DNA of 64,000 nucleotides from a bacterium. GTDB taxonomy: Bacteria; Bdellovibrionota_C; UBA2361; CALJRW01. Position 1 is the first letter of the stretch. Every line of letters starts with the position of its first letter. Below, in pieces: positions 41,356 to 64,000 of this stretch. The notes under the pieces were generated by a model. That model did not search any database and was not told where the DNA came from. It saw only the letters and a program-made list of their open reading frames with translations. The position numbers and the translations under genes were made by a program. The stretch is from contig JANNBC010000010.1 of assembly GCA_031385045.1 (NCBI GenBank), positions 43,293-107,292 of the forward strand. The letters run 5' to 3'.

Positions 41356-42876
41356 TTAGGGAGTTTTTAGCTTAAATACTTTGGTGTCGCCTTGGCTATA
41401 AATTTCCTGATAGCTTGCTTGGAGTAGTTTGGGAGAGGCGATTACTTTTGCGGAACGTTGATTAATTATTAGTAGTGGAACGCCAGCCTTAACTTTCTGT
41501 TTAAGGCTTCTCATGCTTGTGACATGAAAATTCTCTTGTTCTGTAATACTTAGTTTTTGTCCAATATTTAAACCAAAGTTATTAACGATCTCTGGCACAA
41601 AGCTTGCTTGCGAATTAAATAAATATCCCGGCCAAATTGCCACTAATTCTTTTTTTTCTGGATTTAACTTAGCTAGTTCTAGCGCTAAAGCATCGAGCTC
41701 AAAAATACTATGAGGAGGAACAAGGGCGGTGCCTTTGTAGCCTTGGTTTGTTTTTGATGCTTGCTCGGTAAATGAGCGGAGATCGCTTGAAAATCCCCAA
41801 CCATAGGTGAATGTAATGATTAATAATCCAAGTAAGTATAATTGCTTGCCAAAGCCTCTAGTTAAAAGGGGATTGATTAGTAGAATGATATTTGTAATTA
41901 AGAAGGGAATTAAAATTGAAAAGTATTGTACCTGACTGGGAGTAGGGACAAAACTGATTAGTAATAATGCTCCAATAAATAATAAAGACCAATCAAAGCG
42001 GAGACGTTTAATGGAAGTTAATATCGCAGAGATGATTGCTGTCCAAATAAGGAGTGGAATTTGCAAGCTTGCAAATTTAATTGCGGCTCTAAGGCCTAAT
42101 AGTCCCTGAAGAATTAATTTTTTTTGCTCTAATGCTTCTGCAATTGACCAGTTAGATCTTAAGAGATGATAACCTAAGTTGTTAAACCAAAATTTTTCTG
42201 GATTAAGACAACAAAGAACTAACATTGGTGACCCGCCAACTAGTCCCCCAAAAATAAAAGGTAGTAATAGTCTCCGGTTTTTAAAGAATATAATTAGAAC
42301 ACAAGCCGGAGCTAATATTGCCACATAAGAGCGACAGCCAATTGCCGAGGCTAGAAAGATCCCCGCTAAAAATCCACGTAAGCGATTTGGAGTGACGGCA
42401 ATTAAATAGTAACTCGTATAAAGCAACACTGCGGTTAGTCCATAGTTTTTAATTGGCAAGAACCAGTTAAGAGCTAGGGCGGAGGTATTAAATAAGATTA
42501 ATCCAGTAAGGGCTGAAAAAGTTCTACAGTTATTTCGTAAACGTGCAAAAATTAACAATCCAATTAATGAAAATAAAAGTGAAGTAAAGATTCGAGCGCT
42601 AAGCCAACTGGCACCAAAGATTTTAAACCAACTGGCAATGATATAAGGCTGATAGGGTGCTTGTGGGTAAAAGAAATCTAAGTAAGGAACTTTGCCCTGG
42701 GATACTAGTTCTGCTGCTAATAAATAGAACCCTTCATCTGGTGCAACGTAGCGAGCTGTGCCGAGAGTGCTGATCCATAAAAACTGTGTGATAAGTAATA
42801 ATGGATAAATTAAACTGTTTTTTGTCCAGACAGAGTTAGAGCAGTAGGAGTCATGTCTTATCACTTTGGAATTCAT
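41356..42876 (-). CDS. ArnT/PMT-like GT-C glycosyltransferase
   Basis: DEGFY after TM1, G..PY.DF...Q.P, about 11 TMs. Confidence 0.8.
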   Translation of the reverse strand: MNSKVIRHDSYCSNSVWTKNSLIYPLLLITQFLWISTLGTARYVAPDEGFYLLAAELVSQGKVPYLDFFYPQAPYQPYIIASWFKIFGASWLSARIFTSLLFSLIGLLIFARLRNNCRTFSALTGLILFNTSALALNWFLPIKNYGLTAVLLYTSYYLIAVTPNRLRGFLAGIFLASAIGCRSYVAILAPACVLIIFFKNRRLLLPFIFGGLVGGSPMLVLCCLNPEKFWFNNLGYHLLRSNWSIAEALEQKKLILQGLLGLRAAIKFASLQIPLLIWTAIISAILTSIKRLRFDWSLLFIGALLLISFVPTPSQVQYFSILIPFLITNIILLINPLLTRGFGKQLYLLGLLIITFTYGWGFSSDLRSFTEQASKTNQGYKGTALVPPHSIFELDALALELAKLNPEKKELVAIWPGYLFNSQASFVPEIVNNFGLNIGQKLSITEQENFHVTSMRSLKQKVKAGVPLLIINQRSAKVIASPKLLQASYQEIYSQGDTKVFKLKTP

Positions 42877-43116: not shown

Positions 43117-44472
43117 ATGACAAAAAAAATAATCCTCATTTCAATCTTTATTCTGCTAGTTGCGGGGGTATCCTTTTATCTGATGGGTGCTAATAAGAAT
43201 CTGACAGTTAGTCCAGTTGCTGCAAGCTCCGAGTCTGATTTTGTTCTACCAGCAACAGATAATATCGTCTTCTTAGTGATAGATACTTTGCGGGCGGATC
43301 ACTTACCTTTTTATGGTTATAATGTTGATACAGCTCCATTTTTATCGGAGTTAGCCGCAAAATCAATTGTATTTGAAAATGCCTTTTCTGCTAGCTCCAC
43401 CACAGCTCCTTCCATGGCCTCAGTTTTTACTTCTGTCTATCCGTCTCAACATGGAGTGTTGATGGGGATGCAAGCAACCAAGCGTTTGAAGCAACAGTTA
43501 GATGAGCCGTATCAGGATCTTTCGATTAATAAAATTCCAGCAGAGTTATTAACCTTAGGTGAGATGATGAAGCAGTCTGGATTTAAGACTTATGGTGTTG
43601 CTGATAATTTAAATATTGATCATCAAATTGGCTATATCGAAGGCTTTGATAAATTTAAAACTTTTCAATACGAGGGAGCTGCCAATTTAAATAATGTTGC
43701 CATGGAATATTATCCCGATCTACAAAATTCCAAACATTTTTTATACTTGCACTATATGGATCCGCATATTCCATATCATCAGCGCGAGCCTTGGTTTGAT
43801 AAAAATCACCCCAATCCTAAAATTGCTGCCTATGATAGTGAAATCCGTTATGCCGATGAGCATATTAAAAAAATCTTTGAGCAGTACAATGTTTTAGAAA
43901 ACTCCTTAGTAGTTTTTCTATCTGATCATGGTGAAGAGCTGGGAGATCATGGTGATTATGGTCATGGTAGAAATCTTTATCCAGAAGTTATTCGCGTTCC
44001 CTTATTTGTTTATCATCGCAACTTAAAACCAGCGCGAGTTAAACAGCCAGTGTCAACAATTGATGTTTTACCGACCTTAGCTAAGGTTACTAAAATGGAA
44101 GCACAGCCTTATTGGGAAGGGGAATCACTAACCACCTATTTTAATGATCATGATTTTGTTAAGCCCCGCACGACATTCTCCCAATTATTAGGCCCTAAAG
44201 AGTATGTGCGAGAATTGTTTATGGCAGCGCATGATCAAGATCATTGGTTATACATTGACGCAATTAGTCAGGAGCGCAAAGAGTTATTTCATCTTTCCGA
44301 AGATCCACTTGCTTTGGAAGATTTATTATTAGCTTATCCTAATAAATCAACTGAGCTTTCTTCGGAGCTTGAGGTTCTCTCCAAGAAGAGCCCAATCAGC
44401 GCACCAGAAAAAGTCGATATTAAGATGAATAAAAAGACAGTCAATAAATTAAAAACTTTAGGATATTTCTAA
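43117..44472 (+). CDS. Sulfatase-like AlkP-superfamily protein (Thr nucleophile), N-terminal anchor, LGY tail
   Basis: IDTLRADH, STTAPSM, HYMDPH.PY, SDHGE; ends KLKTLGYF. Confidence 0.88.
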   Translation: MTKKIILISIFILLVAGVSFYLMGANKNLTVSPVAASSESDFVLPATDNIVFLVIDTLRADHLPFYGYNVDTAPFLSELAAKSIVFENAFSASSTTAPSMASVFTSVYPSQHGVLMGMQATKRLKQQLDEPYQDLSINKIPAELLTLGEMMKQSGFKTYGVADNLNIDHQIGYIEGFDKFKTFQYEGAANLNNVAMEYYPDLQNSKHFLYLHYMDPHIPYHQREPWFDKNHPNPKIAAYDSEIRYADEHIKKIFEQYNVLENSLVVFLSDHGEELGDHGDYGHGRNLYPEVIRVPLFVYHRNLKPARVKQPVSTIDVLPTLAKVTKMEAQPYWEGESLTTYFNDHDFVKPRTTFSQLLGPKEYVRELFMAAHDQDHWLYIDAISQERKELFHLSEDPLALEDLLLAYPNKSTELSSELEVLSKKSPISAPEKVDIKMNKKTVNKLKTLGYF

Positions 44473-47908: not shown

Positions 47909-49834
47909 TTATTTACTAATCCGTAGAAGCTGTGCCACACATTCTTGAATGCTTAAGGCGTTAGTATCAATCGCTACGTCTGGATTTTTTGGTGCTTCGT
48001 AAGGAGCACTAATCCCAGTAAAGTTTTTAATTTCTCCTTGTCGAGCTTTTTGATAAAGCAGATGCGGGTCTCTTTTCTCGCAAATCTCTAGTGATGTTGA
48101 TAGATAAACTTCAATAAAACAAGAATCTCCAATAATCTTTCGAGCTTGTTCACGATCTTCCACTGTTGGACTGATAAAGGCGCAAATTACGCTAACACCA
48201 GCCTCGTTAAATAGCTTGGCAACTTCTGCGACGCGACGTAAATTTTCTTGGCGATCTTTGGCGGAGAATCCTAAGTCTTTATTAAGTCCTGTTCGTAGGT
48301 TGTCACCATCTAGTAAGTAGACCGGGCGATTATTTTCAAATAGCTTTTTCTCAAAAGCCTTTGCAATTGTTGATTTGCCAGATCCTGAAAGTCCAGTAAA
48401 CCAATATGTCCGTGCCACATGACCAAACTTCTGTTCGCGATCGCTTCGCTCAATTAAGCCACTTTCATGATGTAGGTTTTGGGATCGAGGTTTTTCAGAA
48501 TCTGCGCCTAGTAGTTCTAAATCTTGGCTCGAGCGATCCATGATCATTCCTGCTGCTACCGTCGCAAAATTTTCTGGATCAATTAAAATAAAATTTCCAG
48601 TTCCGCGATTTGCTTGATAACTATCCAGAAATAGTGGTGCTGTTGATTGCAATGACATTCGGCCGATTTCATTAAGTTCCAGTGCTCCACCTGGCTTACG
48701 ACTAAGTGCATTGATGTCAATTTTATACTTAACCTCAGTAATTAAAACTCTAGCTTCATTTACTGTATGACGAATAAAGTATTTTTTATTAATATCTAAT
48801 GGCTGCTCTGACATCCAGATAACCATGGCTTCAAAGTTTGTTTCAACCTTAGGGGCATTACCTGGGCGAACTAACATGCTACCTCGTCCTACATCTAGTT
48901 GATCTTCCAAAGTGATAACTACTGATTGATTAGCGCGAGCTTCGCTTAGCTGATGATCCTTATTTAGGACGGAATGTAATTCAATCGTCTTAACTTTACT
49001 CTTCTTCATGGAAGGTAAGGCTAGGACATCTTCTCCAACGCGAATAACTCCAGAACTTAACATCCCAGCATAACCTCTAAAGTTAGCACTAGGGTTAATA
49101 ATGCACTGAACAGGAAAGCGAAAGTCTACTAGGTTGGCATCTGCTTGGTTATAAACATTTTCCAGATACTCAATTAAAGTCTCTCCGTGATACCAAGGCA
49201 TTTTCTTGCTAGGAGTCACAATATTATCACCTTCTAGTGCTGATACCGGAATAAAGCGCACGTCTCTAATTCCTAACTTTTCAGCAAAGGCCATATAGTC
49301 TTTTTTGATCTGCACAAAAACATCTTCGGCATAATCCACCATGTCCATTTTATTGACAGCGACCAAAAGACGAGGAACTCCCATCAGGGAAGCGATAAAA
49401 GAATGGCGACGAGTTTGAGTAACAATTCCCTTGCGAGCATCAATTAAAATAATTGTCACATCAGCAGTTGAAGCTCCCGTTGCCATGTTGCGAGTGTATT
49501 GCTCGTGACCTGGTGTGTCGGCTAGGATAAATTTTCTTTTAGGAGTTGAGAAGTAACGGTAAGCAACATCAATTGTAATACCTTGCTCTTGTTCCGCTTT
49601 TAATCCATCAGTAACCAGGGCTAGTTCCAGAGATTCCTTGCCACGTTTAACAGAACGCTTCATTAGAGAATCTAGTTGATCCTCATAAATGTTTTTAGAG
49701 TCATGTAACAAACGTCCAATCAGTGTTGATTTACCATCATCTACTGAGCCGGCAGTAGAGAAGCGGAGCATGGAACACTTGGCTGAATCTTCTAAGAATT
49801 TAATAATACTATGATCTGAATTTTGTTCTTGCAT
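47909..49834 (-). CDS. cysNC: Bifunctional sulfate adenylyltransferase subunit 1 / APS kinase
   Basis: GSVDDGKST, EQGITIDVAY, DTPGHEQY, NKMD; C-terminal GLSGSGKST, LDGDNLR, FTGISAPYE. Confidence 0.97.
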   Translation of the reverse strand: MQEQNSDHSIIKFLEDSAKCSMLRFSTAGSVDDGKSTLIGRLLHDSKNIYEDQLDSLMKRSVKRGKESLELALVTDGLKAEQEQGITIDVAYRYFSTPKRKFILADTPGHEQYTRNMATGASTADVTIILIDARKGIVTQTRRHSFIASLMGVPRLLVAVNKMDMVDYAEDVFVQIKKDYMAFAEKLGIRDVRFIPVSALEGDNIVTPSKKMPWYHGETLIEYLENVYNQADANLVDFRFPVQCIINPSANFRGYAGMLSSGVIRVGEDVLALPSMKKSKVKTIELHSVLNKDHQLSEARANQSVVITLEDQLDVGRGSMLVRPGNAPKVETNFEAMVIWMSEQPLDINKKYFIRHTVNEARVLITEVKYKIDINALSRKPGGALELNEIGRMSLQSTAPLFLDSYQANRGTGNFILIDPENFATVAAGMIMDRSSQDLELLGADSEKPRSQNLHHESGLIERSDREQKFGHVARTYWFTGLSGSGKSTIAKAFEKKLFENNRPVYLLDGDNLRTGLNKDLGFSAKDRQENLRRVAEVAKLFNEAGVSVICAFISPTVEDREQARKIIGDSCFIEVYLSTSLEICEKRDPHLLYQKARQGEIKNFTGISAPYEAPKNPDVAIDTNALSIQECVAQLLRISK

Positions 49835-49835: not shown

Positions 49836-50729
49836 TTAAAAGTAACCCTCTCGTTTTTTCATCTCCATTGATCCATCACGGTCGTGATCGATAATTCTAG
49901 TTGCGCGTTCTGATGTTCTAGTCGTCATCATTTCGGCAATAATATCTTCTACGCTTGTTGCTTCCGATCTAACTGCCCCAGTGCAAGGCGAGCATCCTAG
50001 GGTGCGAAAACGACAAAGGACTTCTTCTGATTTTTCACCAGGAAAAACTTTAGCTGCTTGGTTAACAGGAATTAATTGTTCTCCACGAACCACAACTTCG
50101 CGTTTTTTGGCAAAGTATAATGGGACAATTGGAATTTGCTCTAAGTGGATGTAATGCCAGACATCAAGCTCAGTCCAGTTAGAAATTGGAAAAACTCGAA
50201 TCGACTCACCTTGCGCAACTTTTCCATTATATAAATTCCAAAGCTCGGGTCGTTGGCTACGTGGTTCCCATTGTCCAAAGCGATCACGAAAAGAAAAAAC
50301 TCTTTCTTTGGCACGAGAACGTTCTTCGTCACGGCGAGCTCCGCCCATGGCAGCATCAAAATTATATTTCTTTAAACCATCAAGTAGAGCTTTAGTTTTT
50401 AACTGTCCACAACATTGTTGTGTTCCTAGATCGTAAGGGTTGGTGTTATTGGCAATCGCTTTTTCATTGCGATAGACAAGTAATTCCGCTCCGATTGATT
50501 TTGTATACTCATCACGAAAGGCATACATCTCGGGAAATTTGAATCCAGTATCAATATGCATTAACGGAAAAGGAATTTTCCCAGGATAGAATGCTTTCTT
50601 GGCCAGGTGCAGAAGTACAGAAGAGTCTTTGCCCACAGAGTAAAGCATTACTGGTCGCTCAAATTGAGCAGCAACCTCGCGCATAATATAAATACTTTCT
50701 GATTCTAGTTGTTGTAGATAAGTGATCAT
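49836..50729 (-). CDS. cysD: Sulfate adenylyltransferase subunit 2
   Basis: [42 protein letters not shown]. Confidence 0.97.
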
Positions 50730-50732: not shown

Positions 50733-52166
50733 TTACATATATCCTAATGTTGTAAGTTCATCAATTTCGCTCTGGTTTAGGTTCTGCTCACCTAATTTTC
50801 GAGCTCCACCCTTAAAAAACTTGAGTAGCTCATCAGTTTTACGCTTAAAAGTCGGCTTCAGAGAAGAATAATGATCTCCTAGGTTTCTTTCTTCAAAAGG
50901 ATCTGCTTTTAAATCATAATATTCATTGCTACTTTCAGTGTGGTGAATATGCTTTTCTTCTAAATCGTGAACCGAAAATATTTCACCACTTTCCCATGGG
51001 CCCCTTAAAGTTCCAGAGTCTTTTGGGCGTCTTTCGGCAAAGGAGTAAGCAACTTTTTGCTCGCCCCACTTTCCAGTTGTTAAAAGCGGTACTAGGGAAA
51101 TACCCTGAACTTTTTGCTCTAAGGATATTTTTGCTCCTGTGAGTTCGATTATTGTGGGAAGATAGTCAACCGTCCGCACTAGATCATTGATTGCCAATGT
51201 TTTAAGACGCTTATTATTAGCACTAAAGATAAGTGGAACATGCAGTTGCTCTTGATATAAGAACTCACCATGTCCAGCATAGTCGTGATTTCCAAGACCT
51301 TCACCATGGTCAGAAGTAACGATCCAAAGGATGTCATCATCTCCTTTAGATTTAATAAAGTCGGCCAATCGTTTTAGTTGGTCATCAATATAACGGAGCC
51401 TAGCGTCGTAGCGTGTCATTGATTCATAATATTTCTGGCGATCGTTATTATAAAAAGAAAGTGGAATGTTGTGCTTGCTAACGACAAAGTCAATTAATGC
51501 TTCGGCCTCAGGGGTGCCATATTTAGGAAACATATTTAAGTATTCCATTGGGAGAGTGGGGCTATTTTCTTCTGCCCATTCATGAACATCGTAGAGGTGA
51601 AGCCATAAGAAATACTGTTCGGGATTATTGTTTTGCTCTAGCCATTTAATGGCACGGTTAACATTGGGTTCTGCCATTAGATATTGAACTTTAGCTTCTC
51701 CGGTAAAACGTTTTAAACGAAATTCTTGCTCGGGAGTCGGAAAGCCAACTTTTCCTTCCAAGAATTTAGTCGCAGTGAAAATACCTTGTTTGTAGTTAAG
51801 GGAATTGAGCACTTGGTGTAGGTGAAAGAGTTTAGAGTTCATGCTGTCATGATTTCGCAGTACTTTGTGTTCGTATGGAAAAAGTGAGGTAAACATTGTG
51901 CTATGGGAAGGAGCCGTGTGCGAAGAGGCACTAAAGGCATTCTCAAACTTAACACCTTGTTCCATTAATTGAGATAGAAAGGGACTGGTCTCCCTGATAT
52001 ATCCATAGCATTTAAGATGATCGGGCCTTAGGGTATCAATTGTTATAAAAACAATCTTTTTAAAAGGGCCAATTGCTTTGTTTTTGTGGCATCCCGCAAA
52101 TGGAATGGTAAGTATTCCGAAAAGTATGATGCTTAGGAAAAAAAGCCTATTTTTATAGTTAAACAT
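50733..52166 (-). CDS. Sulfatase-like lipoprotein (Thr nucleophile), LGY tail; first gene of the cysD-cysNC operon
   Basis: Lipobox FAGC, IDTLRPDH, SHTAPSH, SDHGE; ends ELTTLGYM; 3 bp from cysD. Confidence 0.88.
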   Translation of the reverse strand: MFNYKNRLFFLSIILFGILTIPFAGCHKNKAIGPFKKIVFITIDTLRPDHLKCYGYIRETSPFLSQLMEQGVKFENAFSASSHTAPSHSTMFTSLFPYEHKVLRNHDSMNSKLFHLHQVLNSLNYKQGIFTATKFLEGKVGFPTPEQEFRLKRFTGEAKVQYLMAEPNVNRAIKWLEQNNNPEQYFLWLHLYDVHEWAEENSPTLPMEYLNMFPKYGTPEAEALIDFVVSKHNIPLSFYNNDRQKYYESMTRYDARLRYIDDQLKRLADFIKSKGDDDILWIVTSDHGEGLGNHDYAGHGEFLYQEQLHVPLIFSANNKRLKTLAINDLVRTVDYLPTIIELTGAKISLEQKVQGISLVPLLTTGKWGEQKVAYSFAERRPKDSGTLRGPWESGEIFSVHDLEEKHIHHTESSNEYYDLKADPFEERNLGDHYSSLKPTFKRKTDELLKFFKGGARKLGEQNLNQSEIDELTTLGYM

Positions 52167-52429: not shown

Positions 52430-53797
52430 ATGTTAGATAAAATCTGCCTTATTTTGATAGCCAGTTTGGCTATTTTTGCTGGAAGTTGCCAGCGTCAAGT
52501 CCAAATCCCTAATTTAAAAGATTTAAACGTACTGTTAATTGTTGTTGATACTCTCGGCGCTAAACATTTAGAGGCCTATAATCGTGAGTTAAAGAATGCT
52601 CCCAATATAACTCGCCTGGCCGATGAAGGTGTGCTTTTTGAGCAAGCATATTCTGCGGCTCCTTGGACCAAGCCGGCAATCTCTTCTATTTTTACTGGCA
52701 AACTTCCCTCTCAGCATAACGTCCGAGGGATTGATGATAATTTATTAGATGATCAACTAACTATTGCTGAGATCTTTAAGGAGCGTGGTTACAAAACAGC
52801 CGGTAGAGTTAGTCATACTTTCATTTCCGCTAAAAAAGGTTTTAGTCAGGGCTTTGATAGCTATAATGTTGTGCCATTTAAAGGGAATGTTCATGATGTG
52901 ATCACATCTCAGGAGGTGACAGCAGAGGGTCTTGATTGGTTAAAGGAGCAGCAAGCAAAAAAAGATGGCAAAAACTTTTTCATGTTCTTACATTATTTTG
53001 ACCCTCATTATACTTACCAGCATCATCAAGAGTTTGATCGCAGTTCTCATTATAAAGGCCCGTTAACTTCTGGTATGTACATTCGAAAACTTCGAGAATT
53101 AATTCCCACTCTGACACCGGCAGATATTGAATATTTAGTTAATCTTTATCATGAAGAAATTGCTTATACCGATTTTTATATTGGAAAGGTGTTAGATTAT
53201 TTGAAAGAGTCTGGCTTGGCGGACAATACGGTAGTGATTTTAACAGCAGATCATGGGGAAGAGTTCTTAGAGCACGGGGATATCGGCCATACAGTCACAC
53301 TCTATGACGAATTAGTCCGAGTTCCTTTGATCATTTCTTTACCTAAATATCTTCGTCCCCATGTCGTTAAAGAAAATGTTTCTACAATGGATATTTTACC
53401 AACTCTCATGAGTTTAGATCCTGTTAAGCTGGAATATGGATTTTCTGGTATATCCTTACTTGATGCTTTAACTGGCAAACAAGCCTTGTCTCCTATTCGT
53501 GATATTAAATTTGAAGTTGATTATCAAGCTGGAATTCAAGCTTTCAAAGCAGGTGTTAAGCAGGATGAGTTTAAGTTAATTCATGATAAGGAAACTAAGG
53601 CTTGGGAGCTTCATAATCTAGCAGTAGACCCAGCTGAATTAAATAATCAAAAAGAAGTTTATCCGGGAGACTTTGAGAGAATAAAACCTAGCTTGCAAAA
53701 CTTTATGGATTCACAAGGGGCTACAAATGGAACTCGCACCGAGGAGCAACGAACTCCAGAAGAGATTAAGCAGCTTAAAACATTAGGGTACATGTAG
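52430..53797 (+). CDS. Sulfatase-like lipoprotein (Thr nucleophile), LGY tail
   Basis: Lipobox AGSC, VDTL, PWTKPA, HYFDPH, ADHGEE; ends QLKTLGYM. Confidence 0.88.
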   Translation: MLDKICLILIASLAIFAGSCQRQVQIPNLKDLNVLLIVVDTLGAKHLEAYNRELKNAPNITRLADEGVLFEQAYSAAPWTKPAISSIFTGKLPSQHNVRGIDDNLLDDQLTIAEIFKERGYKTAGRVSHTFISAKKGFSQGFDSYNVVPFKGNVHDVITSQEVTAEGLDWLKEQQAKKDGKNFFMFLHYFDPHYTYQHHQEFDRSSHYKGPLTSGMYIRKLRELIPTLTPADIEYLVNLYHEEIAYTDFYIGKVLDYLKESGLADNTVVILTADHGEEFLEHGDIGHTVTLYDELVRVPLIISLPKYLRPHVVKENVSTMDILPTLMSLDPVKLEYGFSGISLLDALTGKQALSPIRDIKFEVDYQAGIQAFKAGVKQDEFKLIHDKETKAWELHNLAVDPAELNNQKEVYPGDFERIKPSLQNFMDSQGATNGTRTEEQRTPEEIKQLKTLGYM

Positions 53798-53858
53798 CTT
53801 TATTTATATATAGTCTGCAAAATTTAAATTGATAGAAACTTTAAAAAATAAATACGGG

Positions 53859-55202
53859 ATGATTCTTAAAACATTTATTCGTTTATTAACTTTTTCAATT
53901 TTTTTGATCTGCTGTTTGACCTTAGGTTCTTGTCAGTTATTTAAGAGCAAAAAGCCCAATGTCATTTTTCTAATGCTTGATACTTTGCGAGCCGATCATC
54001 TGGGTATTTATGGTTACGAGCGCAACACCAGTCCAAACATAGATCAGTTTGCCAGAGAAAATTTACTTTTTAAAAATGCGATTACTGCTGTTCCCTGGAC
54101 TCCCCCTTCTGTTGCGGGGATGTTAAGTGGATTATATCCGACTTCCCATAATTTTATGCCACCAAATAGTCGAGAGGAAGCAACCAGTAGTGTTTCTAAG
54201 TTGAGCGATGCTGTTTTAACACTCCCTGAAGTTTTAAAAGCACAAGGGTATCAAACACATGCAATTAGTTCTAACCCCTGGATTACGGATACTTTTGGTT
54301 TTAATCAGGGATATGAAAAATTTGAATACCTAGAGCGTGAGCAGGCTGATATTATTACAGATTCAGGAATTAAAGCGATCGATCAAATGAGTGCTAAGGA
54401 TCAGCCATTTTTTCTTTATTTACATTATCTAGATCCGCATGAGCCATACACGCCTCCAAATAAGTATGTTCAGGCTTTTAAAGGCCCACTTAAGTCTCGT
54501 GAATATGATGTGGAAATGCAACGAAAGATTGGTTTGTATGATGGTGAAATCGCCTTCATGGATGAATGTTTAGGTAAGTTGTTTACTTATCTTAAAGAAA
54601 AAAATCTTTATGAGAATTCAATTATTGTAATTGTTGGTGATCATGGTGAGCAGTTCATGGAACATGGAAATATTAGTCATGGCAATGAATTGTTTAATCC
54701 CGAGTTGCATGTGCCAATGATGATTAAGACTGGGAAGCAGGTGCAACAAAGAGTTGTGGATTATGCTGTTAGTAATATTGATTTATTTCCGACAATTTTA
54801 GATTTAGTGGGCTTAGTACCGCCAACTAATTATCAAAGTGTTTCTTTAGTTAAGGATGAAAACTCTCAAGCCCGTGGTGGGGTGCTTTCTGAAATTAAGA
54901 GAAAATATAACCAGCGTTCTTTTACTAAGTTTGATGGCCAGCGTTTGTTAGTTGGATCTCGCAGTCAAGATCTTACTGTTGATGCTAAGGATGCTGTCGC
55001 TAATTCTATTGGTGTTTTTGATTCCTTTAAAGATATTTGGGAAGAAGCTCCGATTGAGAATCCCGAGCTTCTAAAACAGTTGCAGGCCGAGTTCCAAGCC
55101 GAGCTTCAGAAATCAGAGAGTTTAAAAGTAAAGTCGGCAACAGGTGATGCCGTTGATGAGACAACGATCTCGCAGTTAGAATCTCTTGGGTATTTGAAAT
55201 AA
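53859..55202 (+). CDS. Sulfatase-like lipoprotein (Thr nucleophile), LGY tail (ORF track starts at 53829)
   Basis: Lipobox LGSC, LDTLRADH, PWTPPS, HYLDPH.PY, GDHGE; ends QLESLGYLK. Confidence 0.88.
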   Translation: MILKTFIRLLTFSIFLICCLTLGSCQLFKSKKPNVIFLMLDTLRADHLGIYGYERNTSPNIDQFARENLLFKNAITAVPWTPPSVAGMLSGLYPTSHNFMPPNSREEATSSVSKLSDAVLTLPEVLKAQGYQTHAISSNPWITDTFGFNQGYEKFEYLEREQADIITDSGIKAIDQMSAKDQPFFLYLHYLDPHEPYTPPNKYVQAFKGPLKSREYDVEMQRKIGLYDGEIAFMDECLGKLFTYLKEKNLYENSIIVIVGDHGEQFMEHGNISHGNELFNPELHVPMMIKTGKQVQQRVVDYAVSNIDLFPTILDLVGLVPPTNYQSVSLVKDENSQARGGVLSEIKRKYNQRSFTKFDGQRLLVGSRSQDLTVDAKDAVANSIGVFDSFKDIWEEAPIENPELLKQLQAEFQAELQKSESLKVKSATGDAVDETTISQLESLGYLK

Positions 55203-55204: not shown

Positions 55205-57289
55205 ATGATGAATAAAAATAAAGTAATCTTAATTTTCTTGGCACTGTGTTTACAGCAAGCCATGCTACCTTCTTTTGCTTTTGCTTATATTGGACCAGGT
55301 GCTGGCTTTGCCTTTTTAGGTTCAGCCTTTGTTTTCATTTTAACAATTGGCCTCGCAATTTTAACTATTCTTTTTTGGCCTTTACAGCTTGTCTTAAGAA
55401 AACTTCGGAAGAAAGGAATTTCTAGGAAAGCTAGAACTCGTCGCGTTGTAATTTTGGGTCTTGATGGATTAGAGCCAACTTTAGTGGAAAGATTAATGGG
55501 TGAAGGCCGCCTTCCAAATTTTCAAAAGTTAAAAGATCAAGGTGCCTATTCTAGATTGGGAACAACCTTGCCTTCGCTTTCTCCTGTTGCTTGGTCAACT
55601 TTTCAAACAGGAGTAAATCCTGGAGCACATAATATCTTTGATTTTTTAACTCGTGATAAGCGCTATTGTTTACCTTTGCTTTCTTCAACAGAAACTACAA
55701 CAGTTGCGAAGTATTTTCGCTTTGGTCCTTTTAAGGTTAAACGTGGTGAGCGCGCCGAAGTGAAATTACTACGAAAGTCTAAGCCTTTTTGGAAAATCCT
55801 TGGGGATAAAGGGATTTTTTCTAATATTATTCGAGTTCCAATTTCATATCCACCAGAAAAATTTGCTGGAAATATTCTTTCAGCAATGTGTACGCCAGAC
55901 TTACGTGGGACACAGGGAACCTTTTCTTTTTTTACAAGTGATCCAGGACATCACGAGCTTAGTACCGATGGGACAACTGGTGGAGAAGTTAAATCGCTGG
56001 ACAAGAGGGGAGATTCCTATCATGGTATTTTAGTTGGTCCACCAGATGCTGCTAACCCCAGTCAAAATTTAACATTAGATTTTATTGTCACACCAAAGAG
56101 TCCAACGCTAGCTGATTTCCAAATTGGCGAAGAGAAATTTTCGTTGGAGCTTGGTAAATTGTCAGATTGGATTTCTGTTCGATTTGGCAAAAAGATTTTT
56201 GGCATCGCACGTTTTTGTTTGCGTGCTTCACAGCCCGAATGTTCTGTGTATATTTCCCCCATTAATGTCGATCCAAGTAATCCGGCACTTCCCATCTCAC
56301 AGCCAATATATTTTTCTAATTGGATTGCCAAGAGTCAAGGTCTGTTTGGGACACTAGGAATGTTGGAAGACACTTGGGGGCGTAATGAATTAGCACTTAA
56401 TGACAGTGCTTTTTTAGAACAAGCCTACTTAACTCATGCTGAGCGTGAGAAAATGTTTTTTGAAACCTTAAGCAAAACTCGTGAAGGTTTATGTTGTTGT
56501 GTCTTTGATGCTAGTGACCGCATTCAGCATATGTTCTGGCGTTACATGGATCCTAACCATCCATCTCCTTTAGAAGGCGATGAATTTAAGGACACTATTC
56601 CAAAGATGTACGAGCGAATGGATCAGCTGGTCGGTAAGACCATGTCTAAATTAAATCCGAAGGATACCTTTATAATTTTAAGTGATCATGGATTCGCTTC
56701 CTTCCGACGTTGTATTGGGCTGAATGCTTGGTTGTATCAAAATGGTTATTTAGCTTTGAAGGAAGGTGCCAAGCCAGGACGTGATTATTTCCAAGATGTA
56801 GATTGGAGTAAGACGAAAGCTTTTGCTGTAGGACTATCGGGAATTTATATTAATCGCAAAGGTCGCGAGGTCAATGGGATTGTTGCAGAGGAAGAAGCGA
56901 AGTTATTAAAGCAGGAATTGTCCGATAAGATTGAGCAATTAAGAGACCCTCAGGATAATGCTAATGTCGTTAGTAAGGTCTATGACACGGCAGTTCATTA
57001 CACTGGAATTTATGCGAAAGATGCTCCAGACTTGATCATTGGATATTATCCAGGATTTAGAGTCTCGTGGGATTCCGTTACTGGAACAGTAGAAGAAGAA
57101 ATTTTCTCGGATAATTTAAAAGCTTGGAGTGGGGATCATCATGTCGATCCAAAATTAATTCCGGGAATCTTATTTGTTAATCAGAAGAAAGAACTAAATA
57201 ATCCACACATTGCTGATTTGGCACCTACCGTCTTGGATCTTTTTAATGTGTCGATACCCAAATATATGGAAGGAAAGGTTTTAATCTAA
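55205..57289 (+). CDS. AlkP-superfamily phosphodiesterase/NPP-like protein with a signal peptide-YIGPG-TM N-terminus
   Basis: GLDG, LPSLSPVAWSTF.TG.NPG.H.IFDF, DRIQH, SDHGF, SGDH. Confidence 0.85.
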   Translation: MMNKNKVILIFLALCLQQAMLPSFAFAYIGPGAGFAFLGSAFVFILTIGLAILTILFWPLQLVLRKLRKKGISRKARTRRVVILGLDGLEPTLVERLMGEGRLPNFQKLKDQGAYSRLGTTLPSLSPVAWSTFQTGVNPGAHNIFDFLTRDKRYCLPLLSSTETTTVAKYFRFGPFKVKRGERAEVKLLRKSKPFWKILGDKGIFSNIIRVPISYPPEKFAGNILSAMCTPDLRGTQGTFSFFTSDPGHHELSTDGTTGGEVKSLDKRGDSYHGILVGPPDAANPSQNLTLDFIVTPKSPTLADFQIGEEKFSLELGKLSDWISVRFGKKIFGIARFCLRASQPECSVYISPINVDPSNPALPISQPIYFSNWIAKSQGLFGTLGMLEDTWGRNELALNDSAFLEQAYLTHAEREKMFFETLSKTREGLCCCVFDASDRIQHMFWRYMDPNHPSPLEGDEFKDTIPKMYERMDQLVGKTMSKLNPKDTFIILSDHGFASFRRCIGLNAWLYQNGYLALKEGAKPGRDYFQDVDWSKTKAFAVGLSGIYINRKGREVNGIVAEEEAKLLKQELSDKIEQLRDPQDNANVVSKVYDTAVHYTGIYAKDAPDLIIGYYPGFRVSWDSVTGTVEEEIFSDNLKAWSGDHHVDPKLIPGILFVNQKKELNNPHIADLAPTVLDLFNVSIPKYMEGKVLI

Positions 57290-57504: not shown

Positions 57505-58098
57505 TTAACAACTACCAGCGCCCCAAGTACCTTTTGTGTTGTACTTTGATCCATCAGTCCAAATATAACTGTATTTTGTGAAATGATTATTGTTATTATT
57601 AAACATTGAACAATCAGTTAGATCGAACGAAAGTCCAAAACTAATCGGAGTAGCTCCACTAGTAGTTATAGTCAAGTCTTCGCTATAATGAACAAAGGCA
57701 TTCCAAGTGCTAGGTGGAGTTAGCATTTCTTTAGGATAGATACTGTTTATTTCCTCTTGGGAGAGTAAGTCATATCTAGGAGTACCGCCGACACCACCAA
57801 CGAGAGTTGATACTTCGAGGCGAGGATTAGAGCCACCAGCAAACCACTGCACAGCAAAACTTGTCCTGACATCTCCCAGTCTGTCAGCTGCAATATCCCT
57901 TGCCGCTTGGTTAGCGACAGTGAAGTCGTGTAATGTCGATAGGATAGTTGCCTTTTTTGCAGAATCAGAAAACTGTCTAAATCCAGCCACAGAAATTGCC
58001 GAGAGAATTCCGACAATTACAATAGTTACCAATAGCTCAACAAGGGTAAATGCAGAAATTTTAGAAATATTATTGGCACGGCCTCTCAGTAAAATCAT
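57505..58098 (-). CDS. Type IV pilin-like protein
   Basis: Class III signal A|FTLVELLVTIVIVGILSAI; C-terminal Cys pair. Confidence 0.85.
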   Translation of the reverse strand: MILLRGRANNISKISAFTLVELLVTIVIVGILSAISVAGFRQFSDSAKKATILSTLHDFTVANQAARDIAADRLGDVRTSFAVQWFAGGSNPRLEVSTLVGGVGGTPRYDLLSQEEINSIYPKEMLTPPSTWNAFVHYSEDLTITTSGATPISFGLSFDLTDCSMFNNNNNHFTKYSYIWTDGSKYNTKGTWGAGSC

Positions 58099-58408: not shown

Positions 58409-58624
58409 ATGTTCAAGAAATCAATCAAAATCGACAACGTCCTGTTTGACAAATTAACAGTGGCTGCTCAAATCAAGAAATGTTCTTCGATGGAAGAGTT
58501 TGCTTTGCAAGTTTTAGAAGCGGAAGCAGATAAAGTTTTGACAGAAACTGCCAAGGGCGATTTATCTCAAGATCAGATTGATGATATTACAAATAAACTA
58601 AAAGGCTTAGGTTATTTGGAATAG
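58409..58624 (+). CDS. Small ribbon-helix-helix (CopG-like) protein with a C-terminal LGY tail (ORF track starts at 58397)
   Basis: Strand SIKID, helix, SS turn, helix MEEFALQVLE, acidic linker, ends KLKGLGYLE. Confidence 0.75.
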   Translation: MFKKSIKIDNVLFDKLTVAAQIKKCSSMEEFALQVLEAEADKVLTETAKGDLSQDQIDDITNKLKGLGYLE

Positions 58625-58636: not shown

Positions 58637-59446
58637 ATGGGAGCTAAATTACTAACCTACATTAACCAAATTGTCTCATTTTTAGTTTGGCCATTCACCT
58701 TATTACCTTCTTGGTTTGGTTTACTAGCTATCTCAGTTGTCGCCGGCATGGGCTTGCTCTGGATTTATGGGAAAGTTTCTAATCAAAATAAAATTCGTTA
58801 TGTGAAGAGTAAGATTTATGCTTCGCTCTTAGAGTCAATTCTTTTTAGGCATGATGTTTGGATGACATTAAAAGCGCAAGGTAAGATGCTCTTTTACGGA
58901 GGCAGATATTTTACACTAGCAATTTTTCCTGTTTTAATTCTTGCCGCTCCTTCTATTCTCTTATTGTCGGAACTAAATGAGCAATATGCATCCAAGTCTT
59001 TAGATTCTAAATCAGAAGCAATTGTTCAAATGACTTTGAGCGACGCTAGTAAGCTCTATGAGGTAAAGCTGGAAGCACCTGCTGGTCTTGATGTAACTCC
59101 ACCCGTTAGAATTCCTGCGAGTAAGCAAGTCTTTTGGAAGATTAAAACTTCGGAGCCTGGCAACCAAGAAGTAAATTTTCAAATTGCTGATTTTAATTTC
59201 CCTAAAACGTTATTTGTTGGTTCAGGCAAGAATCACGTCGGAGCTGTATGGAAAAGCTCTTGGGCGGGCAAGCTGTTGTATCCAGCAGGACCTGCTAGTA
59301 TGCCATATGTTCAGAGTTTAACTATTAATTATCCAGAACAACTTTATAGCCTTGGATTATTCGAAGTTAATTGGTTAATTTTCTTTCTAATATTCTCGAT
59401 GCTTTCGGGGATTGTTGTAAGTAAGTATCTGGGCGTCGCTATTTAA
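58637..59446 (+). CDS. Membrane protein resembling DUF106/EMC3/TMCO1 (Oxa1 superfamily), with an inserted beta-rich domain
   Basis: TM, SNQ.KI..VK coiled region, FPVLIL..P TM, beta domain, final TM WL.FF.I.S....SK.LGV. Confidence 0.6.
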   Translation: MGAKLLTYINQIVSFLVWPFTLLPSWFGLLAISVVAGMGLLWIYGKVSNQNKIRYVKSKIYASLLESILFRHDVWMTLKAQGKMLFYGGRYFTLAIFPVLILAAPSILLLSELNEQYASKSLDSKSEAIVQMTLSDASKLYEVKLEAPAGLDVTPPVRIPASKQVFWKIKTSEPGNQEVNFQIADFNFPKTLFVGSGKNHVGAVWKSSWAGKLLYPAGPASMPYVQSLTINYPEQLYSLGLFEVNWLIFFLIFSMLSGIVVSKYLGVAI

Positions 59447-59586: not shown

Positions 59587-60444
59587 ATGTCTAACGTGAA
59601 AAATAATTTCATCATGATCACTTTCGATTCCTGTCGATTTGATACTTTTTTAGCTGCTAATACTCCAAACATCTCCCGCCTTGGTCAGACTGAAAAGTGT
59701 TACTCCTTTGCTAGTTGGACATTTCCATCACACCTTGTCTATTTAATGGGAGCGGGCCCTCACACAAGTCCGAAAGGTGTCTTTGCCTCTGAAGTATATA
59801 AAAAGGACTTTGAAAATTGGGGAGATAGATTAAATATCCCTGACATTTCCTTTAAAGGTTTTGTTCCCAGACTTTCACTCCCAGCATTTTTAAAAAGCCA
59901 AGGCTATAAAACTAATGCCTTAGTTTCCATGCCTGTTTTAAACCCAACTACTATCGTAAATACTCATTTTGATCGCTTTCAATTAATGGATAAGCATAAT
60001 GATTTTAATGCGATTATTGATGCGATGATTTTTGAGCCAGAAGTTCCGCAGTTCTATTTATTAAATATTGGTGAAACGCATTATCCTTACACTCTCCCAG
60101 GTGAAGGTAATGACTTGCCGATCATTCATGGGATGCATGGGATTTTCAAGCATATGGATGATTTCGTTGCTGGTAACTCTGCTCCTGCTCAAGCAGCCGA
60201 TCATGGCGGTGATAAATTTTTCCACATGGATCGCATGTTGGCGCTCAAGGAAAAACAACGCACAAACATCGAATATCTCGATGGTCTGTTTGAGAAGTTA
60301 TATGAAAAAGTTCCTGAAAATACTTACGTCCAGGTAATGTCTGATCACGGGGAGTGCTTTGGTGAAGATGGCTACTTTGGCCATGGACCGATTATGCACG
60401 AAAAAGTTTTTGAAATCTTTAAAGTGGAAGGTAAATTTAAATAA
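59587..60444 (+). CDS. Short cytoplasmic sulfatase-like protein (Thr nucleophile, no signal peptide, no LGY tail; ORF track starts at 59554)
   Basis: FDSCRFD, SWTFPSH, ETHYPY, SDHGE.FGEDG..GH; AAGGA SD before the ATG at 59587. Confidence 0.82.
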   Translation: MSNVKNNFIMITFDSCRFDTFLAANTPNISRLGQTEKCYSFASWTFPSHLVYLMGAGPHTSPKGVFASEVYKKDFENWGDRLNIPDISFKGFVPRLSLPAFLKSQGYKTNALVSMPVLNPTTIVNTHFDRFQLMDKHNDFNAIIDAMIFEPEVPQFYLLNIGETHYPYTLPGEGNDLPIIHGMHGIFKHMDDFVAGNSAPAQAADHGGDKFFHMDRMLALKEKQRTNIEYLDGLFEKLYEKVPENTYVQVMSDHGECFGEDGYFGHGPIMHEKVFEIFKVEGKFK

Positions 60445-62450
60445 TGGGAATTACTCGTCGCCAATTTATTAAGGGAACTGCTGCCAGCCTAGCTGTTGGA
60501 GCGGCGAGTAGTATAATTACTCCAGGTTCTGCTTTCGCTAAGTTTCCGCATATCCGAAATAATAAGATTGCACGCAAGGCGATCGTCTTGGGCTTTGATG
60601 GGATGGATCCGGATTTAACTCGCAAGTTTATTGCGGAAGGACACATGCCAACATTTAAAAAAATGATTGAAAAGGGTTGGCACTTTGGTGAGCTGCAAAG
60701 CACAATGCCACCACAAAGTCCTGTAGCTTGGGCTAGTTTTATAACCGGAACAAATCCAGGGGGAACAGGGATTTTTGATTTCGTACATCGTGATCCGGCC
60801 AACTTTGCTCCCTATCTTTCTACTTCTAGAAGTTTTGATGCCGAGAAGACCTATCAAGTTGGCAACTGGAATATTCCCTTAAGTGGTGGGCGAGTGGACT
60901 TGATGCGTAAAGGCATTCCATTTTGGGATTACTTAACAAAAGAAGATATTCCATCAACAGTTTTCCAAATTCCTGCTAATTTTCCGATTGTGCAGTCAGG
61001 TACTAATATGATTAGCGGAATGGGAACGCCTGATCTTTTAGGTTCTTATGGTACATATACTTATTATACTGATACTCTGGTTCCTGGTTCAGAGAAGTTT
61101 GTTGGAGGGCGAGTAATCCGCGTGCGCGGAGCTGATAATACTTTTAAAACAACTTTGCCTGGGCCTCAAAATACTTTCCGCGTTGATGGACGCGCAACAA
61201 CAGTCGATTTTACAATTAATCGTGATTCTTATGAGAAAGTTCTAAAGATTACAATCCAAGGGCAAGATATAATTCTGCGCCAAGGCGAATGGTCTGGATG
61301 GATTCCCTTAACTTTTGAATTAATCCCTCATTTAGCATCTGCGCCAGCGATGGTGCGTTTCTTTGCACAAGAAGTCCACCCTAACTTTAAACTCTATGTC
61401 TCCCCAATTAACATCGATCCTCTAAATCCAGCACTGCCAATTTCGGGCCCAGTCGAATATGCCAGCGATCTAGCTAATGCTGTGGGACGTTTTTATACTC
61501 AAGGATTTCCAGCTGACAGTAAGGCTTTATCCACAGGTGTTTTTTCTGATGATGAATATTTAGTTCAATCTAAAATTGTTCTTCAGGAAAACCTTGCTTC
61601 CTTTGAATATCAGTTAAAAAATTTCCAGGAAGGTTTATTCTATTTCTATTTTTCGTCCACAGATCAGAATCAACATATGATGTCTCGTTTAATGGATCCA
61701 ACTCATCCGCAGTACAATCCAAATGGAAGTCCAGAAACAAAAAATGCTGTGCTTTATTTCTACAAGGCGATGGATGATGTCTTAGAACAAACCTTGTCTA
61801 AGGTTGATAGCTCAACGTTAGTGATCGCTCTTTCTGATCATGGGTTTGCACCTTTTACTAGAGAATTTAATTTAAGCACTTGGTTGGTGAACGAAGGTTT
61901 TACTGCGGTGTATAATCCAAAGGATATGGAAGATGCCGAAGTTTATTCCTGCGTTGATTGGGAAAAGACTCAAGCTTATGCCTTAGGAATTAATGGTCTT
62001 TATATTAATATCAAAGGGCGAGAGAAGAATGGATCTGTTGCCCAAGAGCAAGTTCAGGCAATTAAAGATCAGATTATTAGCAAGCTCTCCCAAGTGAAAG
62101 ATCCGCTAAATAATCAACCAATTATTACTTCTGTCTATGACGCTGAAAAACTTTACTCTGGGGAGTTCGCCAGTTCTGCTCCAGACTTAGTGGTTGGTTA
62201 TCAACGGGGATATCGTATTTCAGATGAAGCTGTTCTTGGTAAGTTCCCAAAAGAGATTGTAACTGATCGTAAGGATAAGTGGGCCTCAGATCATTGCTCA
62301 GATCCAATGGTTGTTCCTGGGATGATCCTAACAAATAAAACTTGTAATACTCAAGGTGCAGGGCTTTGGGATATGGGACCAAGTATTCTTAAAGCTTTTG
62401 GTATTGATACCCCAAAGCAGATGAATGGCAAGAATGTACTAGAAAGCTAA
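60444..62450 (+). CDS. Tat-exported AlkP-superfamily phosphodiesterase/NPP-like protein
   Basis: TRRQFIKG twin-arginine signal ending AFA; GFDGMD, PPQSPVAWASF.TG, DQNQH, SDHGF, SDH; TAATG coupling to the upstream gene. Confidence 0.88.
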   Translation: MGITRRQFIKGTAASLAVGAASSIITPGSAFAKFPHIRNNKIARKAIVLGFDGMDPDLTRKFIAEGHMPTFKKMIEKGWHFGELQSTMPPQSPVAWASFITGTNPGGTGIFDFVHRDPANFAPYLSTSRSFDAEKTYQVGNWNIPLSGGRVDLMRKGIPFWDYLTKEDIPSTVFQIPANFPIVQSGTNMISGMGTPDLLGSYGTYTYYTDTLVPGSEKFVGGRVIRVRGADNTFKTTLPGPQNTFRVDGRATTVDFTINRDSYEKVLKITIQGQDIILRQGEWSGWIPLTFELIPHLASAPAMVRFFAQEVHPNFKLYVSPINIDPLNPALPISGPVEYASDLANAVGRFYTQGFPADSKALSTGVFSDDEYLVQSKIVLQENLASFEYQLKNFQEGLFYFYFSSTDQNQHMMSRLMDPTHPQYNPNGSPETKNAVLYFYKAMDDVLEQTLSKVDSSTLVIALSDHGFAPFTREFNLSTWLVNEGFTAVYNPKDMEDAEVYSCVDWEKTQAYALGINGLYINIKGREKNGSVAQEQVQAIKDQIISKLSQVKDPLNNQPIITSVYDAEKLYSGEFASSAPDLVVGYQRGYRISDEAVLGKFPKEIVTDRKDKWASDHCSDPMVVPGMILTNKTCNTQGAGLWDMGPSILKAFGIDTPKQMNGKNVLES

Positions 62451-62881: not shown

Positions 62882-63154
62882 ATGGGAAAGAGATTAAGCC
62901 AGGAGCTAAAATATGAAGCGATTCGACTAGTTGAGCATCATGGTGTTAAGCATGATCAGGTAGTTAAAGAACTAGGAATTGGACGTTCCACTCTTGATAA
63001 ATTGTTAAAAGAGTACCGAACTGTCGAAAGTAATGGATTAACAGTAGATGAGAAAGCTGAACTTAAAAGGCTGAGGGAGGAGGTTAGAATCCTAAAAATT
63101 GAGAAAGAGCTTTTAAAAAAAGCGACGGTATACTTTGCAAAGCACTCGGAGTGA
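62882..63154 (+). CDS. IS3 transposase OrfA (HTH + leucine zipper)
   Basis: ELK.EAI.LV, V..ELGI..STL..., ELKRLREE...LK.E.ELLKKA..YFAK; AGGAG SD. Confidence 0.92.
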   Translation: MGKRLSQELKYEAIRLVEHHGVKHDQVVKELGIGRSTLDKLLKEYRTVESNGLTVDEKAELKRLREEVRILKIEKELLKKATVYFAKHSE

Positions 63155-64000
63155 GGTGTGGTTTTGTTGCCGAGCACTGCAAGCTAGATTTGGGAATCCC
63201 AAGGCTGTGTAATTTAGTTCAAGTTTCCAAGTCTAGCTACTATCATTGGTGTAAAGGATTAGAAGATCGAGAACTAACTCTTCAGGCTGAAAAAGAGTTG
63301 TATTTTAAGATTAAAAGAATCTTTATTGAAAGCCTGAAGAGTTATGGAGTTCCTAGAATTCACACAGCATTATTAAGATCTGGTGTTGCTTGCAGTCGAA
63401 GACAAATTGGCAGAATAATGCGTAAAAACAAGCTTATTTCTGTTCATTGCAAAAGATCTTTTATTACAACGACTGATTCAACGAAGACAAAAGCACCTGC
63501 TGAAAATTTATTAGATAGAAACTTTAAAGCAAAGTTTCCTAATGAAAAATGGGTTGGCGATGTGACTTACATTCGAACTGGCGAAGGTTGGGTATACTTA
63601 GCAACAGTAATTGATTTGTTTTCTAGGAAAATAGTTGGTTACAGATTAGGAGCTAGGAATGATGCTGTTCTTGCTTGCTCAGCTTTCCAAATGGCGCTAG
63701 CCAGAAGGAAACAACCGAAGCAATTAATTTATCATTCCGACAGAGGAAGTGTTTATGCAAGTAATGAGTTTAAAAAGTTACTTGCGGACAATAAGATCAC
63801 ACCAAGTATGAGTAGGAAGGGTAACTGCTGGGACAAAGCAGTCGCTGAATCTTTCTTTCATACTTTAAAAGTTGAGCTGATATATCAAACTAAATTTAGA
63901 TTGAGAATATCAGCATTATCTAGTATCAATAACTGGATATAAAATTTCTACAATCCGAGGAGAATGCATTCACCTCTGGGATATTGTAGTCCTGACGAAT
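63151..64000 (+). pseudogene. IS3 transposase OrfB (DDE) with a premature TAA at 63940-63942
   Basis: W.GD.TY, YLA.VID..SR, HSDRGS.Y, GNCWD.A..ESFF; frame continues after the stop as NFYNPRRMHSPLGYCSP. Confidence 0.85.

Follow-up and report, generated by a model that had tools for sequence, protein, structure and literature searches.

Formylglycine sulfatases are recognised by the motif (C/S)xPxR, and in EptA and LtaS a membrane domain supplies the lipid donor. The active site of MCR-1 is built from E246, T285, H395, D465, H466, E468, and H478 (PMC5216409). In choline sulfatase, phosphonate monoester hydrolase, and the dimeric arylsulfatases, a C-terminal extension can reach the active site (PMC5870055); these tails belong to formylglycine enzymes, are specific to subgroups and, in the part of that source that bears on them, are not reported on other folds or on a free protein, which sets them apart from the tail described here. 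The Tyr acyl shuttles DltX and PatA carry a C-terminal FXYXXF motif and work with MBOAT and SGNH partners (PMC12148441). Where sulfate is concerned, Cpz8 has been proposed to turn PAPS into a diffusible sulfate ester on which a second transferase, Cpz4, then draws (PMC6731281), the natural acceptors of most periplasmic PAPS-independent aryl sulfotransferases are given as unidentified (PMC13426309), and bacterial tyrosine sulfation is exemplified by RaxX/RaxST. Oxa1 proteins translocate short tails, and their DUF106 branch has been described as archaeal and eukaryotic (PMC5868721); the relatives TMCO1, EMC3, and Get1 are treated in the same paper and in bioRxiv 10.1101/2020.12.20.422553.

The bacterial locus analysed here lies in a 64,000-nt stretch of DNA (the window; all coordinates are positions in it, and open reading frames (ORFs) are named by a window coordinate). 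As in DltX and PatA, a motif with an invariant terminal Tyr occurs both on a microprotein and fused to enzymes, and in the mechanism proposed here a group made in the cytoplasm would be relayed to an extracytoplasmic enzyme with a covalent Ser/Thr intermediate. The locus differs from those acyl shuttles in its motif (LxxLGY), in having a soluble ribbon-helix-helix (RHH) protein instead of a membrane anchor, in its AlkP-fold enzymes and Oxa1 homologue, and in its predicted cargo, sulfate. An earlier note on this DNA had drawn the analogy to DltX; the functional likeness stands, whereas the FXYXXF motif and the dependence on an MBOAT protein are not shared, and neither MBOAT nor SGNH proteins were found among the 15 locus proteins scanned or recognised among the commonest neighbour clusters. 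Unlike Cpz8/Cpz4 and the aryl sulfotransferases, the proposed shuttle would be a protein Tyr, the enzymes are of the AlkP fold, and a membrane would be crossed. We found no description of the motif or the cassette in the literature searched, most subscription journals and supplements lying outside its scope. The cassette is widely conserved and undescribed in the papers searched; the mechanism set out below is proposed and unproven.

Tailed enzymes and the RHH-LGY microprotein

Four Thr-type sulfatase-fold enzymes in the window end in an LGY tail: 43117..44472 (+ strand; N-terminal signal anchor; tail KLKTLGYF at 44449-44472), the predicted lipoproteins 50733..52166 (− strand; ELTTLGYM, 50733-50756) and 52430..53797 (+ strand; QLKTLGYM, 53774-53797), and 53829..55202 (+ strand; called start 53859, 447 aa; QLESLGYLK, 55176-55202). 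We infer from their N-terminal signal anchors or lipoboxes that all four are exported. Together with the microprotein tail KLKGLGYLE (58624), these are the five tails that the earlier note had listed, and each was found at the stop position given for it; its statement that the proteins at 55205, 59587 (ORF open from 59554), and 60444 have no LGY tail was likewise confirmed. What did not hold was the description of the carriers as otherwise unrelated folds. PF00884 scores over its cut-off in all four enzymes, which are paralogues with 27-29% identity to 43117, so the tail on them counts as a single origin. Against NCBIfam every score is far below cut-off.

The tailed enzymes do not have the active site of a formylglycine sulfatase. 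The nucleophile position is Thr81 in 112/112 rows of the tailed-enzyme alignment, within WTP(P/A)S(V/L/I) and with no Arg, and D41, T81, H194, D261, H262, E264, and H274 are invariant in the same 112 rows. This spacing equals that of the MCR-1 residues listed above, with H194 equated by order rather than by superposition. The likeness to EptA, MCR-1, LtaS, and BcsG therefore lies in the Thr nucleophile and the Asp/His/Glu/His spacing, which the short enzyme HYD (below) also has; the differences are an S1-sulfatase C-terminal domain, the LGY tail, and the lack of a polytopic lipid-donor domain, the catalytic domain being preceded by only a ∼30 aa signal or anchor. Having no such membrane domain, the tailed enzymes would need an outside donor. 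The best fold match of the 53829 model is to S1 sulfatases (VIA alignment with 6hr5_A: Z 39.8, rmsd 2.2, 340 aligned; Z 25 with MCR-1). Most VIA alignments of this model stop at residues 421-429 and a few reach 437-447, and the AlphaFold2 monomer places a tail helix at 434-442 with a pLDDT of 84-89. From the alignment, the tailed enzymes look like group transferases that would act via a covalent Thr intermediate.

Each tail consists of an acidic or polar linker, a short helix, and Gly-Tyr followed by one or two residues (consensus LxxLGY[LIMF]), and the amphipathic Leu-x-x-Leu-Gly face is conserved. Across the 2.83-Mb genome, L..LGY occurs 40 times in 842,375 residues (2,510 ORFs of at least 100 aa), and in these ORFs it stands at the C-terminus 6 times against 0.6 expected. 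When ORFs of at least 50 aa are scanned, 9/5,849 match at the C-terminus: five Thr-type paralogues (four from the window plus a fifth on contig C20), the microprotein, an ATPase-like protein that presumably resembles a P-type ATPase, and two short ORFs that are probably spurious. The Tyr is conserved in 120/120 listed homologues of 53829, a set not selected for the tail, and in the enzyme alignment the tail Tyr is one of the only 2 fully invariant columns among 16 in which Tyr is the majority residue. GLGY is present in 106/106 microproteins, a set chosen by tail presence. The Tyr motif ends 122/150 microprotein representatives, none has Phe at that position, and most of the remainder are RHH-only or unrelated sequences. 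Taken over 242 sequences, a Tyr-to-Phe substitution in the tail occurs 0 times.

The microprotein (58409..58624, + strand; 71 aa, ATG at 58409, no signal peptide) joins an RHH-like N-terminal part of ∼48 aa through a polar linker to LKGLGYLE (58598-58621), with the codon for Tyr69 at 58613-58615. The RHH assignment made in the earlier note is supported by matches to RHH_1 (21/106 members) and TacA1 (16/106 members, both at E ≤ 0.05, the query itself being below cut-off), to NikR (E=0.028), and to CopG-named clusters (0.93), all of which are weak. The RHH part is probably a dimerising, DNA-binding scaffold with an independent role; a k-mer count found no shared operator repeat in 38 upstream regions. 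Four apparent microprotein fusions (P0223, P0240, L085, and L093) were left out as probable artefacts of frameshifts or start calling. We note that a type IV pilin-like gene with an N-methyl motif (57505-58098, − strand) lies between the gene for NPP-B (below) and that for the microprotein, which adjoin in most relatives, unlike here.

The tail also occurs on other proteins. Among loci related to the cassette, 5 of 12 APS kinases carry a second helix, of the LGY type, placed after the native last helix. In these five (L055, L078, L084, L090, and L117) the added helix resembles the kinase's own last helix, for example LELMGYIP followed by LKELGYL, and this C-terminal helix of APS kinases may be the origin of the LGY tail or the model that it mimics. 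In related loci three NPP-A proteins are fused to an LGY helix, which is C-terminal in L055 and closely follows the lipobox in L074 and L082, and in one tailed enzyme the motif stands 14 residues inside the C-terminus. Because the helix can be N-terminal in NPP-A, a free C-terminus is not always needed, and the C-terminal sorting signal that the earlier note had offered as an option is disfavoured by the two N-terminal cases and the internal one. The portable function proposed there is supported by the invariant Tyr, by the occurrence on several folds, and by decay upon loss of the cassette; by sequence, portability across folds rests on the RHH protein, the APS kinases, and the NPP-A fusions.

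Conservation and loss of the cassette

The cassette that includes the microprotein is conserved in several phyla. One short pattern, derived from an 8-sequence alignment since broad microprotein alignments were too variable, matched 553 GTDB stretches; 80 of these loci were retained, biased by the pattern's origin toward the AGYSSV[DE]EF subtype, and with 7 Bdellovibrionota loci gave a set of 87. The retained loci come from Acidobacteriota, Planctomycetota, Gemmatimonadota, Eisenbacteria, Sumerlaeota, and others. Of the 87 loci, 86 have an NPP-type gene and 83 the membrane protein MEM, followed by a sulfotransferase (23), Thr enzymes (20), HYD and APS kinase (12 each), and Sat (11); only locus counts are used here, because alternative-frame ORFs swell the NPP cluster (214 ORFs). 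The commonest gene order is NPP-B, NPP-A, microprotein, MEM, and within the phylum the microprotein and MEM genes adjoin in 30/30 loci.

In 124 genomes of the phylum the microprotein profile gives 53 matches, of which 43 are full-length; the other 10 are partial (one cut by a contig end, one weak, and eight from one genus). All 43 genomes with a full-length microprotein also have MEM, Thr enzymes, and NPPs, counts that cover related genomes, which are not independent, and incomplete MAGs, so that Fisher values computed from them are too optimistic. Eight genomes (G085, G090, G102, G078, G087, G082, G076, and G080; loci L119-L126; completeness 76-99%) retain the RHH part at the same locus, the tail being gone in 8/8, and have no NPP, MEM, HYD, or Thr enzyme. 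They form one clade (support 99/98), so the loss of the tail counts as one event. At these loci the tail-less RHH gene has the same neighbour gene as in the tailed relatives, and it lies next to a conserved gene of ∼210 aa with an RCEDGH motif.

Exceptions occur on the enzyme side. Genome G040, of the same family as the source genome, has no cassette and two tail-less Thr paralogues that are 42-47% identical to 43117. Ten further enzyme rows were inspected, nine because their alignment stops before the tail, and G019 in addition: four are tailed, one has its tail 14 residues inside the end, three are tail-less, and two are cut or gapped. The three tail-less paralogues sit in NPP-bearing genomes, which counts against a strict rule linking tail and cassette, and in G019 and G028 tailed enzymes stand beside an NPP with no microprotein or MEM detected. 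With these exceptions, the genome comparisons show the tail to be kept together with the cassette and, in one clade, lost with it.

Partner proteins and sulfate genes

NPP-B (55205..57289, + strand) has a signal peptide, one transmembrane (TM) segment, a basic patch, and an NPP-like domain; its paralogue NPP-A (60444..62450, + strand) has a Tat-type signal and is predicted to be periplasmic. PF01663 is over cut-off in both, and the closest solved NPP relatives are weak (best E=3e-5). Each contains a set of presumed two-metal ligands with a Ser nucleophile (D60, S99, D411, H415, D467, H468, and H618 in NPP-B; D52, S92, D407, H411, D465, H466, and H617 in NPP-A). The mature N-terminus of NPP-B is predicted to be YIGPGAG, with the Tyr codon at 55286. 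The invariance of this Tyr in the NPP-B alignment arises from row selection, and an unselected check shows no more than that the alignment begins at profile position 1 for 43/44 top matches. In three NPP-Bs from planctomycetes there is hardly any signal peptide, or none, ahead of YIGPG. The basic patch holds on average 7.2 K/R against 0.4 D/E (59 motif-selected rows), and the catalytic domain of NPP-B is predicted to be cytoplasmic with the N-terminal Tyr periplasmic. Across relatives NPP-A has a Tat, Sec, or lipoprotein signal, Sec or lipoprotein in most, and the two NPPs are predicted to lie on opposite faces of the membrane.

MEM (58637..59446, + strand) was assigned by profile and model to the DUF106/Ylp1/TMCO1/EMC3-like membrane proteins. 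Its profile matches archaeal MJ0480 (Ylp1, 5C8J) at E=2.3e-9, and PF01956 (DUF106) is detected in 18/73 members. In VIA the model (pLDDT 93) aligns with 7tut_8, a chain that we take to be TMCO1, at Z 12.3 (rmsd 3.3, 131 aligned) and with YidC (3wo7) at Z 7.8. A Foldseek search with the model matched only Ig-like domains, and the Oxa1 match comes from PF01956, the MJ0480 profile, and VIA. At the level of profile and model, these comparisons show that MEM belongs to the DUF106 branch of the Oxa1 superfamily. It shares with Ylp1/MJ0480 and TMCO1/EMC3/Get1 a predicted core of amphipathic helix, TM1, cytosolic coiled coil, TM2, and last TM; unlike Ylp1, TMCO1, and EMC3, it is bacterial, additional to the separate canonical YidC that the genome also encodes, tied to an enzyme cassette, and interrupted by an Ig-like domain ahead of the last TM. 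Conserved polar columns, which may line a lipid-exposed hydrophilic groove like that of the Oxa1 superfamily, are S33, S48, Q50, Q81, Y91, Q/E112, and S254, to which W246 is added.

HYD (59587..60444, + strand; 285 aa) is a short Thr-type AlkP-fold enzyme with the same Thr/Asp/His/Glu/His constellation as the tailed enzymes and without their signal, C-terminal domain, or tail; LGY is found on 0/120 of its homologues. It occurs in 40/43 phylum genomes with a full-length microprotein, and outside the phylum it is the least constant neighbour of the microprotein (12/87 loci). In the first 50 of 80 outside genomes, HYD is present in 8, a cassette sulfotransferase in 24 (one of them the unpublished genome G167), both in 0, and neither in 18, and the sulfotransferase query had no match in the 124 genomes of the HYD-bearing phylum. 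Because the two are never found together in these genomes, HYD may replace a sulfotransferase, and we regard it as a candidate substitute. As a universal partner HYD was ruled out by its presence in only 8/50 genomes. With E=0.89 for its best match of solved structure, the cassette sulfotransferase is no more than a possible tyrosylprotein sulfotransferase.

Genes for sulfate activation sit among the tailed-enzyme genes of the window: cysNC, for the ATP sulfurylase large subunit fused to APS kinase (47909..49834, − strand; NF004035 over cut-off), and cysD, for the small subunit (49836..50729, − strand; TIGR02039 over cut-off). CysD is encoded in 40/43 genomes with a full-length microprotein (and in 24 others of the 124) and sulfite reductase in 1/43, the latter not being found in the source genome either, so the activated sulfate is probably not for assimilation. 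Within the fetched flanks, 36/87 loci have a sulfate-activation or sulfotransferase gene. The source genome (G000) gave no Sulfotransfer_3 match and one weak, fragmentary Sulfotransfer_1 match. It also has a second cysD/cysN pair and further CysD-like genes (C37:15564-17795; C53:65018-65911; C26:161656-162666), and two ASST-like (PF14269) genes (C54:250640-253396; C45:74170-75429), one of which adjoins a membrane protein resembling the GT-C protein 41356. ASST-like proteins were ruled out as clients of the cassette because genomes without it are richer in them; each of the 10 phylum genomes with at least 3 such genes (3-9 copies) lacks it, six of the 10 being from one family.

On the acceptor side, a PMT_2 (GT-C type) membrane glycosyltransferase (41356..42876, − strand; PF13231, E=3.8e-9) possibly makes an acceptor glycan. 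An FG-GAP/RGL11-like beta-propeller protein (44495-45889, − strand) and a polytopic membrane protein of 582 aa that matches no Pfam family (46156-47904, + strand) lie among the tailed enzymes and are possible acceptor-side components. Also in the window are a 1114-aa acidic low-complexity protein (31225-34569, − strand) with an internal near-duplicate of ∼50 aa (LSTTANxTLEKENHLPDNPEN), three adjacent genes (34767-38330, − strand) that we take to resemble TadE/TadG pseudopilins and, directly behind the cassette, two overlapping ORFs (62882-63942, + strand) that presumably resemble an IS3-family transposase.

A proposed tyrosine relay and its alternatives

The earlier note had offered, as one option, that the tail Tyr is a swinging-arm carrier of aryl sulfate or phosphate, and the aryl-sulfate form is the reading that we favour, on genomic and chemical logic. 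That the LGY tail is a portable Tyr helix on which sulfate travels, covalently bound as tyrosine-O-sulfate, from PAPS/APS in the cytoplasm to acceptors in the periplasm seems to us to have a little under an even chance of being right. In the scheme we propose, CysDNC would make APS/PAPS, and HYD, or a PAPS sulfotransferase in other phyla, would load Tyr69 of the microprotein. The loaded tail would dock in cytoplasmic NPP-B and hand its group to the NPP-B Ser, after which the N-terminal Tyr of NPP-B, on its YIGPGAG arm, would swing through the MEM groove to periplasmic NPP-A. NPP-A, via its own Ser, would then load the tail Tyr of the exported Thr enzymes, from which the group would pass to the enzyme's own Thr and on to glycans, perhaps those made by 41356. 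With a signal peptide of its own, NPP-B has no evident need of MEM for insertion, and this speaks for a repurposed groove. What the sequence comparisons show is the invariant tail Tyr, the cassette, the co-loss of the two, the sulfate linkage, the transferase-type site, and the Oxa1 homology. Several points count against the relay. NPP-type enzymes usually attack phosphorus, and on APS or PAPS this would give nucleotidyl rather than sulfuryl transfer. The Thr constellation is that of phosphoform transferases, no more than 36/87 loci have sulfate genes in the fetched flanks, 18/50 outside genomes have neither HYD nor the sulfotransferase, and CysD also occurs in the 24 genomes that have no full-length microprotein. 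The full proposal, a trans-envelope sulfuryl relay with the LGY Tyr-O-sulfate as transfer currency on both sides, mirror-image AlkP-fold enzymes that pass it on through an Oxa1/YidC groove converted from inserting proteins to shuttling a Tyr arm, and thousands of Thr-nucleophile LGY "sulfatases" acting as periplasmic sulfotransferases, is tentative, and we would put its prospects at roughly one in three.

The invariant tail Tyr can also be read as a hydrogen-bonding docking residue. On this account LGY is a non-covalent docking or plug helix that binds pockets on NPP-B inside and NPP-A outside, where it recruits clients (the RHH regulator, APS kinase, and the exported transferases) or gates, and a small molecule carries the group. 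We consider it doubtful, yet it accounts for every co-occurrence result, including the tailed enzymes beside an NPP in genomes with no detected MEM or microprotein, and fits both the N- and C-terminal fusions to NPP-A and the conserved amphipathic face. It leaves unexplained why Phe never replaces Tyr in the 242 sequences, why a second Tyr stands on a Gly-rich arm at the mature N-terminus of NPP-B, and why sulfotransferase and HYD alternate. The relay could also be kept with its cargo changed to a phosphoform or nucleotidyl group (phosphocholine, phosphoglycerol, or AMP), as the Thr/His/Asp constellation of phosphoethanolamine transferases and the two-metal NPP ligands in both large paralogues would allow. 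This is unlikely, given that Sat, CysC, CysDN, and sulfotransferases are what recurs nearby, that the 45 commonest neighbour clusters contain no recognised cytidylyltransferase, that CysD accompanies the cassette so regularly with sulfite reductase so rare (40/43 and 1/43), and that the tailed fold is closer to S1 sulfatases than to MCR-1 (Z 39.8 and 25).

Known C-terminal tails of AlkP-superfamily sulfatases complete neighbouring active sites (PMC5870055), and the LGY helix is modelled with confidence in the monomer, so that an oligomerisation or lid tail as in choline sulfatase, supplied in trans by the microprotein to HYD, NPP-A, or NPP-B, deserves consideration. The known tails, however, vary by subgroup in length and sequence, whereas LGY is common to the RHH, APS-kinase, NPP, and sulfatase folds; the G040 paralogues manage without a tail at 42-47% identity to 43117, and HYD is absent from 42/50 cassette genomes. 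We judge this reading improbable, much as we do the phosphoform cargo. The tight adjacency of the microprotein and MEM genes, which is the closest link in the cassette, would suit a tag for export or sorting that is recognised by the Oxa1 homologue, then acting as a dedicated insertase or translocase, as would the translocation of short tails by Oxa1 proteins and the presence of a separate canonical YidC. The tailed enzymes already carry Sec-type signals, though, and the tail is found on cytoplasmic APS kinases and at N-terminal and internal positions, which makes a tag very unlikely. That the microprotein is a transcriptional repressor only, with an incidental tail, is the persistence of RHH without tail or cassette in eight genomes and the weak NikR and RHH_1 matches taken at face value. 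A dispensable tail is disfavoured, as no part of the family is better conserved than the tail, which goes missing where the cassette does, and no shared operator was seen in the 38 upstream regions; we give this reading hardly any credence.

We return to the sulfuryl relay to say what it would mean. PAPS is cytoplasmic, and the relay, if true, would supply a route to glycan sulfation outside the inner membrane of Gram-negative bacteria. It would also carry the principle of the tyrosine shuttle over from acyl to sulfuryl groups, show an Oxa1-superfamily protein at a task besides membrane-protein insertion, and reassign a very large family of annotated "sulfatases" (5,671 matches among 7,994 candidates scored) to biosynthesis. 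Even if docking proved to be the explanation, a cassette with a bacterial member of the archaeal and eukaryotic DUF106 branch would be one that the papers searched do not describe.
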